Of a DNA stretch of 39,837 bases, positions 1-39,837 are shown piece by piece. Below the pieces are notes generated by a model that saw nothing but the letters and a program-made list of their open reading frames with translations, was not told the DNA's origin and ran no database searches. Each line of letters begins with the position of its first letter. The stretch's first letter is position 1. The DNA is from Escherichia phage pO103: the sequence record OR204651.1; one strand, 5' to 3'. The position numbers were made by a program, and so were the translations under genes.

Positions 1-59
1 TCTCATAGTTCATACACACCGAGTTCCCCCCACCTATGGCCTCCTTCAGTTCCACCCAA

Positions 60-330
60 AGAGTCGGCCCCTTATGGTAACTTATGGTTTACTTAATGTC
101 AATCCTTATGTGAGACATTGAGTTAACTTTAGGTGTTACCACTAGATGTGGTGTGTGGGGGACATTATGACCACTATATGTAGTCCTCTCTGTGTCCCTA
201 TCTGTAATCACCTTATGTTTCCTCTTTGAGTTAACACCTTATGTCACCTCTTATTAGCTACGCTAACCTTATGTCTATCCTTATGGCTGCCTCTCCTTAT
301 GTTAACCTTCAGTCGGTGCCTTCAGTCTAT
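60..330. repeat. Left-end array of CCTTATG heptamer repeats (copies at about 70, 104, 211, 237, 267, 279, 295, plus CCTTCAG variants at 306 and 319), analogous to the CCTAAAG-type repeats near T7 genome ends
   Basis: Direct reading of repeated heptamer; same heptamer recurs at the right end of the window (39699, 39754, 39780). Confidence 0.7.
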
Positions 331-378: not shown

Positions 379-401
379 TAATGCGACTCACTATTGGGAA
401 T
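379..401 (+). promoter_or_regulatory. Phage RNAP promoter phiOL-like (TAATGCGACTCACTATTGGGAAT)
   Basis: 21/23 match to T7 class promoter core; downstream GGGAATGG identical to right-end promoter at 39271. Confidence 0.6.
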
Positions 402-36976: not shown

Positions 36977-37423
36977 ATGCTCAAGAATTTAAAGAGCTAC
37001 GCCATAATCGCTGCGTTTGCCTTGGGAATTACCCTTGCGTATAACCACGGATATGACAAAGCTAACACTAAATGGGAACAGGAGGTGCACAATGAGTACG
37101 TTAAGAAAGTTAAGGCGACTGAGGATAAACAAGTTGCTATCAACGAAATCTCACGACAATACCAAGAAGACCTTGCGGCGCTGGAGGGCAGCACTGATAG
37201 GGTCATTAATGATTTGCGTAACGATGATAAGCGCTTGCGCGTCAAACTATCAGCCACCACACGAGAACTCCAAGATAACGGTGGATGCCTCGTTGATGGT
37301 CGAGCCGAACTTGACGAAGAGTTTAGTAAGCGTCTTATCGGAGTAACTCAAAGAGGGGATGCGTGGATTCGTGCGCTCCAAGATACAATCAAAGAAATGC
37401 AAACTAAGAAGGAGGCTAAGTAA
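36977..37423 (+). CDS. 18.5: Gene 18.5 i-spanin (Rz-like)
   Basis: 148 aa, N-terminal TM segment, coiled-coil-like body. Confidence 0.85.
37092..37346 (+). CDS. 18.7: Gene 18.7 o-spanin (Rz1-like lipoprotein) embedded in the +1 frame of 18.5
   Basis: 84 aa from [11 protein letters not shown]; lipobox-like MISAC; C-terminus SLMVEPNLT matches T7 gp18.7; GGAGGTG RBS. Confidence 0.8.
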   Translation: MSTLRKLRRLRINKLLSTKSHDNTKKTLRRWRAALIGSLMICVTMISACASNYQPPHENSKITVDASLMVEPNLTKSLVSVLSE

Positions 37424-39183
37424 TGTCACAATCCCAAGAAGCTAAGAATGCGTTAATCATAGCGCAACTTAAGGGTGACTTCGTAGCATTCCTGTTCGTC
37501 CTATGGAAGGCTCTGAACTTACCTAAACCAACCAAGTGTCAGATTGATATGGCACGTACACTCGCTAACGGCGACCACAAGAAGTTTATCCTTCAGGCGT
37601 TCCGTGGTATCGGCAAGTCCTTTATCACATGTGCGTTCGTTGTGTGGGTCTTATGGCGTGACCCTCAACTCAAGATACTCATCGTGTCTGCCTCTAAGGA
37701 ACGTGCTGATGCTAACTCCATCTTCATCAAGAACATCATTGACCTGCTGCCATTTCTCGAAGAGTTGAAACCTCGACCGGGACAGCGTGACTCCGTGATT
37801 AGCTTCGACGTTGGCTTGGTTAAACCAGACCACTCACCCTCTGTGAAGTCTGTGGGTATCACTGGTCAGTTAACTGGTAGCCGTGCTGACATCATCATTG
37901 CAGATGACGTTGAGGTTCCCGGTAATAGCTCTACGAGTTCTGCCCGTGAGAAGCTCTGGACGTTGGTAACTGAGTTTGCTGCATTGCTTAAGCCACTTCC
38001 TACCTCTCGTGTTATCTACCTTGGCACACCTCAAACCGAGATGACGCTCTACAAGGAACTTGAGGATAACAAAGGGTACAGCACGGTAATCTGGCCAGCA
38101 CAGTATCCACGTAATGATGCTGAGGCTCTCTACTATGGGGACCGCTTGGCTCCGATGCTTAAGGTTGAATATGATGAGGGCTTCGAGTTACTTCGTGGTC
38201 AACCTACTGACCCTGTTCGATTCGACATGGATGACCTCCGTGAACGTGAACTCGAATATGGTAAAGCTGGCTACACGCTTCAGTTCATGCTTAACCCTAA
38301 CCTTAGTGATGCCGAGAAGTACCCGCTACGACTCCGTGACGCTATCGTGTGCGCTGTGGACCCTGAACGTGCCCCATTGTCTTACCAGTGGTTGCCGAAC
38401 CGTCAGAACCGCAATGAGGAGCTACCTAACGTTGGTCTGAAGGGCGATGACATCCATGCGTTCCATACGTGCTCTTCAAGAACCGCTGAGTATCAGTCTA
38501 AGATTCTGGTCATTGACCCAAGTGGTCGTGGTAAGGATGAGACCGGGTATGCAGTCCTCTACTCACTTAACGGTTATATCTACTTGATGGAAGTCGGTGG
38601 GTTCCGTGGTGGTTACGATGATGCTACCCTAGAGAAGCTCGCTAAGAAGGCCAAGCAGTGGAAGGTACAGACAGTCGTCCATGAGTCCAACTTCGGTGAC
38701 GGTATGTTCGGTAAGATTTTCTCTCCGATTCTCCTGAAGCACCACAAGTGTGCCTTAGAGGAAATCCGTGCTAAAGGCATGAAGGAGATGCGAATCTGCG
38801 ATACTATCGAACCGTTGATGGGTGCACACAAGCTGGTCATTCGTGATGAGGTTATCCGTGAGGACTACCAGACTGCTCGTGACCTTGATGGGAAACATGA
38901 TGTTCGCTACAGTGCGTTCTATCAGATGACCCGTATGACCCGTGAGCGAGGCGCTGTGGCACACGATGACCGACTTGATGCTATCGCATTGGGTATAGAG
39001 TTCCTGCGTGAAGGGATGCTTGTGGACAGCCGTGTAGGTGAAGAAGAGATGACCCTTGAGTTCCTTGAACACCACATGGAGAAACAGACCATTGGTGGTG
39101 ATGCTATCCATAGCTACGATGTTGGTGGCGTGGACATCTACTACGAGGACGACGGAGACTCTAGCTGCTTCATTGAGTGGTAA
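37423..39183 (+). CDS. 19: Gene 19 terminase large subunit
   Basis: 586 aa, same length as T7 gp19; ATPase and nuclease domains. Confidence 0.97.
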
Positions 39184-39270
39184 TAGATAAGTATGCGGGA
39201 AAGGTGCATAGGTAAGCACTTAGTACCGCTACGTTACCGTTAAGTAACTTACTGATATACATGAAGAAAT

Positions 39271-39293
39271 TAATACGACTCACTATTGGGAAT
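39271..39293 (+). promoter_or_regulatory. Phage promoter phiOR (TAATACGACTCACTATTGGGAAT)
   Basis: Consensus match; same +1 to +8 as phiOL. Confidence 0.85.
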
Positions 39294-39451
39294 GGCACCC
39301 TAAGACAACTTAAAGACACTTAAAGACTGCATATGCAAAGTGCATACTTAGTGACTAACTCTAAGAGACCCTTACAGTGAGGGATGATAGTAATTGTAAT
39401 TACATCCCTAACTATCAGTGTAACCATCAAGTATAACAAGGAGGACGCTCT

Positions 39452-39607
39452 ATGCGATTACTATCCGTGCTTAAGACACTAGCAACGCATCGAGTGACCT
39501 ATAAATTTCTCGTTGTACTTGCTGCTTCCATTGGTCTCGCATCTAGTGTTGAACACATCGGTGAACTGGAGACTCTGCTTTGTTCTCTACTCACTTGTGT
39601 TCCTTAG
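39452..39607 (+). CDS. Gene 19.5-like small hydrophobic protein (51 aa)
   Basis: AAGGAGG RBS 7 nt upstream; position downstream of phiOR as T7 19.5. Confidence 0.5.
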   Translation: MRLLSVLKTLATHRVTYKFLVVLAASIGLASSVEHIGELETLLCSLLTCVP

Positions 39608-39635
39608 ACTGCTCATTGGCGCTTAGCGCGCTCTT

Positions 39636-39673
39636 AGTGATTATGGTCGATATACATCTTCCCTATAATCACT
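39636..39673. repeat. Inverted repeat AGTGATTAT ... ATAATCACT (9-bp arms, 20-nt loop) near right end; preceded by palindrome AGCGCGCT
   Basis: Direct reading; right-end location suggests role in concatemer processing or packaging. Confidence 0.5.
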
Positions 39674-39698
39674 GTAAGAAGTCAACTCTAAGAGTAAC

Positions 39699-39786
39699 CC
39701 TTATGTACCCTCTATGGTCTACAGGGTCTCTTAGGGTCTCTCACGTAGTCTCACCTTATGATAGCCACTCTGTGGTTAACCTTATG
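39699..39786. repeat. Right-end CCTTATG heptamer repeats (39699, 39754, 39780) and GGTCTCT direct repeats
   Basis: Same heptamer as left-end array. Confidence 0.6.
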
Positions 39787-39837
39787 AGATACTTGATGTA
39801 CCCCTTTAAGAATCCTACAGAAAAATCTGAGTGGGTA

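Follow-up and report, generated by a model that had tools for sequence, protein, structure and literature searches.

The right end of the Escherichia phage pO103 genome record as the probable left half of a concatemer junction of T7 type from a Berlinvirus-like phage

Organization of the right end of the genome

The sequence analysed here, referred to below as the window, is the whole 39,837-nt stretch of Escherichia phage pO103 (sequence record OR204651.1), which begins with TCTCATAGTTCA and ends with ...AAAAATCTGAGTGGGTA. It belongs to a Berlinvirus-like phage of the T7 group: its right 25 kb is 89-93% identical to Berlinvirus genomes over 88-91% of the length, with Shigella phage A7, vB_YenP_WW1, 285P and PYPS50 among the best matches and no closer record found. 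For the last 538 bases there are 93 matching phage records; 81 of them span 80% or more of the query, and identity reaches 92-96% in the best matches over the full length. The features of the right end, and those of the left end to which it would be joined in a concatemer, are as follows (a slash marks a predicted cut).

37423-39183, plus strand: gene 19, large terminase of 586 aa (open reading frame; Pfam Terminase-T7_RNaseH-like, E = 8e-40)
39276-39291, plus strand: phiOR promoter core, the final rightward promoter ahead of the junction (exact core match, CGACTCACTATTGGGA)
39452-39607, plus strand: gene 19.5, 51 aa, the last gene (open reading frame; annotated as 19.5 in BA14 and Kvp1)
39625-39632, no strand: palindrome AGCGCGCT, unconserved and private to the window
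39632-39679, no strand: imperfect palindrome with a core of two 9-bp arms (39636-39644 and 39665-39673), a hairpin being possible on either strand
39699-39705, plus strand: first CCTTATG heptamer of the right-hand array, kept in 11 of 12 relatives
39723-39742, plus strand: tandem 10-bp units AGGGTCTCTT and AGGGTCTCTC, each with GGGTC, a pentamer of T7-primase type
39754-39760, plus strand: second CCTTATG heptamer of the right-hand array, kept in 12 of 12 relatives
39780-39786, plus strand: third CCTTATG heptamer of the right-hand array, kept in 12 of 12 relatives
39802-39837, plus strand: conserved block CCCTTTAAGAATCCTACAGAAAAATCTGAGTGGGTA, ending at the predicted left-end cut GGGTA/TCTCATAG
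1-199, plus strand: predicted left terminal repeat, single copy, with boundaries TCTCATAG... and ...TGTGTCCCT homologous to those of T7, T3 and BA14
200-206, plus strand: ATCTGTA, differing in one base from the class II pause/termination signal of T7, ATCTGTT, directly right of the repeat and after TGTCCCT
211-301, plus strand: left-hand short-repeat array with five CCTTATG copies (at 211, 237, 267, 279 and 295)
384-399, plus strand: phiOL promoter core (exact core match; annotated in BA14)

It is the gene 19 product that would be expected to act on the junction. The promoter core CGACTCACTATTGGGA is matched 14 times in the window, always on the plus strand, against 0.29 matches expected, and its copy at 39276 has homologues in the annotated BA14 phiOR and in the phi19.2 promoter of Kvp1. 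In ErnstBeyeler, PcCB251 and BP12A the interval between gene 19 and phiOR holds an extra gene (each at 1-405 of the extracted locus), which is annotated in ErnstBeyeler as a putative homing endonuclease; the window has no extra gene there, gene 19 ending at 39183 and phiOR starting at 39276. Just downstream of phiOR lie two CTTAAAGAC units (39309-39327), which mirror the CTTAAAGA units found downstream of phiOL (446-453 and 457-464). Promoter-associated secondary origins are known in T7, and the CTTAAAGAC units may be linked to such origins.

Coding potential of the region

In the window no open reading frame of at least 20 codons lies wholly within 39608-39837 or reaches beyond 39626, and scans of the region for sigma-70 promoters and intrinsic terminators found none. 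The region is nevertheless annotated as protein-coding in three relatives: an 'unknown product' of BA14 (39380-39697, i.e., 481-798 of the extracted locus) and the corresponding frames of FE44 (779-1111) and BP12A (779-1069, both in extracted-locus coordinates) overlap gene 19.5 and cross the region, those of BA14 and FE44 extending into the terminal repeat. Against a coding function stands the fact that the longest plus-strand frame entering the region in the window ends at 39626, while the indels among the relatives are mostly not multiples of three, and those of 1, 2, 11 and 23 bp break any frame. As no open reading frame continues beyond 39626 and the frame is broken in the window as well as in other relatives, we rejected this explanation as extremely improbable, and the coding annotations over the region in BA14, FE44 and BP12A are probably spurious.

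Terminal repeat

The sequence-only reading of this DNA had held that the window stops before the right copy of the terminal repeat, and this is confirmed: TCTCATAGTTCA occurs at position 1 only, and no 15-mer of 1-199 recurs in the window. The repeat is thus present once, and its right copy would start directly after 39837. In BA14, FE44 and PcCB251, the right terminal repeat is annotated as starting at the base that follows the homologue of the last base of the window (in BA14, the right-end match stops at 39622 and the annotated right repeat occupies 39623-39816), while in Kvp1 the annotated right repeat starts one base later than in these three phages. In two circularly permuted assemblies (P694, 3988/3989; vB_YenP_WW1, 10739/10738), the sequence passes straight from the homologue of 39837 to that of position 1, and a virtual junction, made by joining the end of the window to its start, can be aligned with the real junctions of 12 relatives without interruption.

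The start of the repeat, TCTCAYAG, is common to the window, T7, T3 and BA14. Its right edge is set by TGTCCCT/ATCTGT, which is common to T7, T3 and BA14 (with repeats of 160, 231 and 194 bp, respectively) and on account of which the repeat in the window is predicted to span 1-199. It would thus be 5 bp longer than that of BA14, and the virion genome would amount to about 40,036 bp. The predicted boundaries agree with the T3 ends mapped by high-throughput sequencing, TCTCATAGTTCAAG... and ...GTACATCTCTATGTGTCCCT (PMC3896407), and the 194-bp repeats of Kvp1 were verified by primer walking (PMC2579914); in the case of the phage studied here, the virion ends and the repeat length of 199 bp are predictions by homology. 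The predicted repeat itself holds CCTTATG at 70 and 104. A run of C residues near 24-31, inside the repeat, differs in length among relatives.

CCTTATG repeats at the two ends

The three right-end CCTTATG heptamers noticed in the earlier reading are indeed present at 39699, 39754 and 39780, all on the plus strand, and share their motif with the left-end array; nor are they peculiar to this phage, the first being retained in 11 and each of the other two in all 12 of the relatives. The window as a whole contains 16 copies of CCTTATG against 3.9 expected, a number reached in none of 100 shuffles. Ten of the 16 fall within 440 bp at the two ends, three to the left of the repeat, two inside it and five to the right, all on the plus strand and none there on the minus strand (binomial P ~2e-16). 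The whole genome of BA14 likewise has 16 plus-strand copies, 11 of them at its ends, and that of T7 has 22 plus-strand copies of CCTAAAG, 17 of them clustered within ~340 bp of its two ends. The CCTTATG copies are thus the version of the T7 CCTAAAG arrays found in this lineage. Apart from this, CCTAAAG is strand-biased also in the window (nine plus, one minus) and in BA14 (nine plus, none minus), though it is not their junction repeat.

A search with a degenerate pattern of the cut-site block retrieved 28 viral contigs, both heptamer types included; each contains either CCTTATG or CCTAAAG near the junction, never both. The switch from CCTAAAG (T7 and T3) to CCTTATG (Berlinvirus) accompanies the change of ATCTGTT to ATCTGTA just right of the repeat.

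Within one and the same right-end stretch, 1 of 21 heptamer columns is variable in relatives, compared with 38 of 100 spacer columns (Fisher P = 0.0015), and we conclude that the heptamers are under constraint. The opposite possibility is that they are functionless by-products of slippage or recombination in tolerant non-coding DNA, carried along with the required repeat boundaries and pause site. It would fit with the variation of copy number and spacing among close relatives and with the large indels between copies; in the left-hand array, for instance, the motif is kept in relatives, with four to six copies over the compared span in differing arrangements. We regard it as unlikely, since the heptamer bases vary far less than the spacers, all ten end copies have one orientation, the arrays flank and occupy the repeat in three genera, and the motif has been switched wholesale between lineages and not mixed. 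It is unlikely that any single heptamer is required, and the repeat boundary together with the pause site would be the critical part.

To our knowledge, no function has been established for the heptamer arrays, even in T7. Our best guess is that constrained heptamers of this kind would form a multi-site binding array for a phage protein engaged in DNA maturation. It is a more speculative suggestion, in which we place little confidence, that this protein is lineage-specific (e.g., the small terminase gp18 or another maturation factor) and that the switch of motif reflects co-evolving maturation specificity between genera.

Pentamers of T7-primase type (TGGTC twice, GGGTC twice) occur on the plus strand of 39608-39837 at 39644, 39715, 39724 and 39734, with none on the minus strand; four are found where 0.95 are expected (P = 0.016), and only 0.9% of 230-bp segments hold as many. 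In T7, phiOR is a secondary origin. With the phiOR promoter upstream, the region might thus serve replication of the genome end instead of packaging, the primase sites and the phiOR-linked secondary origin placing the last lagging-strand primer near the right end. The enrichment is modest, however, and was found after the fact, the specificity of the sites is assumed from T7 primase, and the heptamers, the palindrome and the invariant cut-site block would be left unexplained. Consequently, we find this explanation improbable and favour a role of the region in junction processing.

Inverted repeats and palindromes

The 9-bp-arm inverted repeat of the sequence-only reading was recovered as described, with perfect arms AGTGATTAT (39636-39644) and ATAATCACT (39665-39673) separated by a 20-nt spacer. 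Perfect inverted repeats with arms of at least 9 bp and a short spacer occur only twice in the whole 39.8-kb window, and the chance of finding one in a simulated 230-bp region is ~0.02. The other one, TACTTAAAG/CTTTAAGTA (455-486), is situated ~60 bp downstream of phiOL, among the repeated CTTAAAGA units. Folding of 39632-39679 as DNA yields, for one strand and the other, -7.7 and -8.5 kcal/mol, with z values of -3.45 and -3.61.

The palindrome is by no means absent from related genomes: in an alignment of 13 sequences, 13% of its columns are variable, compared with 15% for the coding tail of gene 19.5 and 56% for the surrounding repeat region. In FE44 and PYPS50 the arms carry a compensated double change (A-T to T-A, AGTGATaAT/ATtATCACT). 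The stem covariation within Berlinvirus amounts to this single double change in two phages, and it is not significant in a shuffle control.

Genomes of T7 and T3 type possess a 14-pair hairpin that starts 204-227 bp before the repeat; in the window, the arms extend from 202 bp to 165 bp left of the first base of that repeat. The T7 hairpin differs from that of T3 at ten places, eight of which fall in four pairs. All four are compensated, and all cells pair; slid controls of this comparison gave no compensated pairs, and the two sequences fold to an identical structure. The Berlinvirus palindrome, however, has no sequence alignment with the T7/T3 hairpin, is offset by ~20 nt relative to the shared CCCTATA motif, and has a spacer of 20 nt, compared with 3 nt in T7. 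At best, the two are analogous in position.

Chung, Nardone and Hinkle (1990) reportedly proposed a hairpin-forming site as an intermediate in the duplication of the repeat. Our literature search on where exactly the hairpin end of T7 is located returned secondary mentions only; the end seen experimentally would map to the hairpin ~200 bp left of the repeat.

The palindrome might alternatively act in RNA, forming a stem-loop within the 3' untranslated mRNA of gene 19.5 that would serve, e.g., for processing or stabilisation. Rightward transcription from phiOR and from promoters upstream crosses the region, its RNA fold reaches -13.6 kcal/mol with a z of -2.4, z values of -3.3 and -4.0 with identical structures are obtained for the counterparts in T7 and T3, and compensated changes suit RNA as well as DNA. 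On the other hand, all tested stem pairs are Watson-Crick in each of the sequences, with no G-U (one BP12A cell is unpaired), and the hairpin is therefore equally possible on both DNA strands. We know of no RNase III site after gene 19.5 in T7, which also counts against an RNA function. Furthermore, an Rfam scan of 39000-39837 with E up to 1 gave no match, and a hairpin end, possibly a processing intermediate, has been reported on the DNA of T7 concatemers (according to the summary in PMC4281155 and the title cited in PMC4925675). An action in RNA thus appears rather unlikely to us, and we retain the DNA hairpin as the preferred interpretation of the palindrome.

The second palindrome pointed out earlier, AGCGCGCT at 39625-39632, is present in the window, although its proposed role as a junction signal does not withstand comparison with relatives. 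Its C at 39627 is replaced by T or G in 11 of 12 relatives, Kvp1 having no base there, so that the site mostly reads AGTGCGCT. Palindromes of 8 bp number 58 in the window, i.e., ~0.33 per 230 bp, a frequency with which this one fits chance, and it is probably a chance occurrence.

Three other repeats of the region were considered. The 8-bp palindrome GGTTAACC (39774), unconserved among relatives, was treated as chance. The inverted repeat I3 (39762-39770 with 39829-39837) was rejected since its left arm differs in most relatives, and I2 (39685-39694 with 39728-39737), considered as a counterpart of the T7 repeat ATGGTCTATC/GATAGGCCAT, which lies 93-130 bp before the terminal repeat of that phage, does not correspond to it in sequence.

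Pre-repeat block and putative pause signal

Two elements overlooked in the earlier reading adjoin the predicted repeat on its two sides. The 36-bp block at the end of the window is near-invariant in 12 Berlinvirus relatives. The match of its last 17 bases and of the first nine bases of the repeat extends to T3 and T7, the 17 bases being almost identical, and 30 of its 36 bases are common to T3. The C-run preceding and entering the block (39801-39804) comprises three to seven C among relatives, and these length differences, like those of the C-run inside the repeat, could be due to slippage or to sequencing error.

On the other side of the repeat, ATCTGTA (200-206) shares six of seven bases with the T7 class II signal ATCTGTT, differing in the seventh. 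It is found in all Berlinvirus relatives with data, whereas genomes of T7 and T3 type have ATCTGTT, and the place homologous to 200-206 is annotated in BA14 as 'concatemeric junction'. ATCTGTW occurs once on the plus strand and six times on the minus strand of the window, with corresponding numbers of 1 vs. 9 in BA14 and 1 vs. 8 in T7, and the sole plus-strand copy is always situated just right of the left terminal repeat. The pause-type heptamer is thus kept off the transcribed strand except at the junction, a skew that fits selection against polymerase pause signals inside genes.

In the case of T7, the complex of RNA polymerase and lysozyme pauses at this signal and, by interacting with both gp18 and gp19, starts maturation (PMC3276506). 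Since any base change in the signal has been reported to abolish class II termination by T7 RNA polymerase, pausing at ATCTGTA by the polymerase of the phage studied here is only putative. The 36-bp block and ATCTGTA would be the elements with the best claim to a signal role.

Comparison with other T7-like phages

The layout of the T7 junction, in which the terminal repeat is preceded by the right-hand short repeats and followed by a pause site for RNA polymerase and then the left-hand short repeats, has been known since 1983, when Dunn and Studier reportedly described these right-hand and left-hand short repeats together with a terminal repeat of 160 bp and ATCTGTT as the class II pause site. 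The window shares with T7 the order of phiOR, gene 19.5, a hairpin ~200 bp left of the repeat, same-orientation heptamers, the repeat, ATCTGT and phiOL, the presence of heptamers on both sides of the repeat and inside it, the boundaries TCTCAYAG and TGTCCCT, and the uniqueness of the pause-type heptamer on the plus strand. It differs from T7 in the heptamer (CCTTATG vs. CCTAAAG), in the last base of the pause-type signal (ATCTGTA vs. ATCTGTT), in the predicted repeat length (199 bp vs. 160 bp) and in the sequence of the palindrome.

As regards T3, whose pac elements are pacB, the one that gp18 recognises, and pacC, where gp19 cleaves, its left end starts identically with TCTCATAGTTCA, it has the same type of terminase, and it contains an analogous hairpin with the four pairs compensated relative to T7, but its heptamers are CCTAAAG, its signal is ATCTGTT and its repeat is 231 bp long. 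The region is orthologous to that of the Berlinvirus phages BA14, Kvp1, FE44, PcCB251, P694 and A7 (92-96% identity), and these relatives share its heptamer, palindrome, 36-bp block and ATCTGTA. Unlike them, the window has no right repeat copy and carries its private AGCGCGCT palindrome. It also keeps an 11-bp unit that is absent from BA14, P694, FE44 and 285P.

The anatomy of the region and its conservation, like the lineage specificity and the strand bias of its repeats, are matters of direct observation. As far as can be judged from the sequences compared, 39608-39837 is, with a probability of about 0.85, a non-coding stretch that forms the left half of the T7-type junction between concatemer units of a Berlinvirus-like phage; its role in concatemer processing and packaging is one that we infer by homology.

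Model of junction processing

The heptamers, the 9-bp inverted repeat and AGCGCGCT had all been put forward as candidates for concatemer-junction processing. In the case of the heptamers and the inverted repeat, which are conserved beyond their surroundings, this candidacy is reasonable by homology; AGCGCGCT drops out. The events proposed below are modelled on T7 and T3, and every functional step is transferred by homology from these phages.

A concatemer would read from 39837 into a single repeat (1-199), ATCTGTA and the left-hand heptamer array. Late rightward transcription, with phiOR (39276) as the nearest promoter, would cross gene 19.5, the palindrome, the heptamers and the repeat, and the phage RNA polymerase would pause at the signal of class II type that adjoins the repeat on its right. 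The paused complex may then aid the terminase (gp18/gp19) to begin processing, a cut at CCCT/ATCTGT giving the right end. T7 DNA is packaged with its right end first, and were the same to hold here, 39608-39837 would be among the first DNA to enter the capsid. In the packaging reaction gp18 recognises PacB and gp19 cleaves at PacC (PMC9860248). Our literature search for the mapped extent of pacB returned secondary mentions only, and no element of the window is equated here with pacB.

A second cut or nick at GGGTA/TCTCA, beside the 36-bp block, would produce the left end of the next genome. The terminal repeat would be duplicated by DNA synthesis, perhaps primed from a hairpin, and the palindrome at 39632-39679 may be the counterpart of the hairpin-forming site that was proposed as the duplication intermediate.

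Implications

The arrangement described here is already known and is ordinary for the T7-like family; it is without novelty in that the terminal repeat, the 'concatemeric junction' and the promoters phiOL and phiOR are already marked in the GenBank record of BA14. Nothing is changed in what is known of T7-type DNA maturation. In practical terms, the record is best treated as carrying one copy of a direct terminal repeat of ~199 bp. The presence of a palindrome ~200 bp left of the repeat in three genera, despite the turnover of its sequence, lends modest support to an old model. If the heptamers were indeed a binding array for a lineage-specific protein, this would provide a handle on the function of the heptamer arrays.
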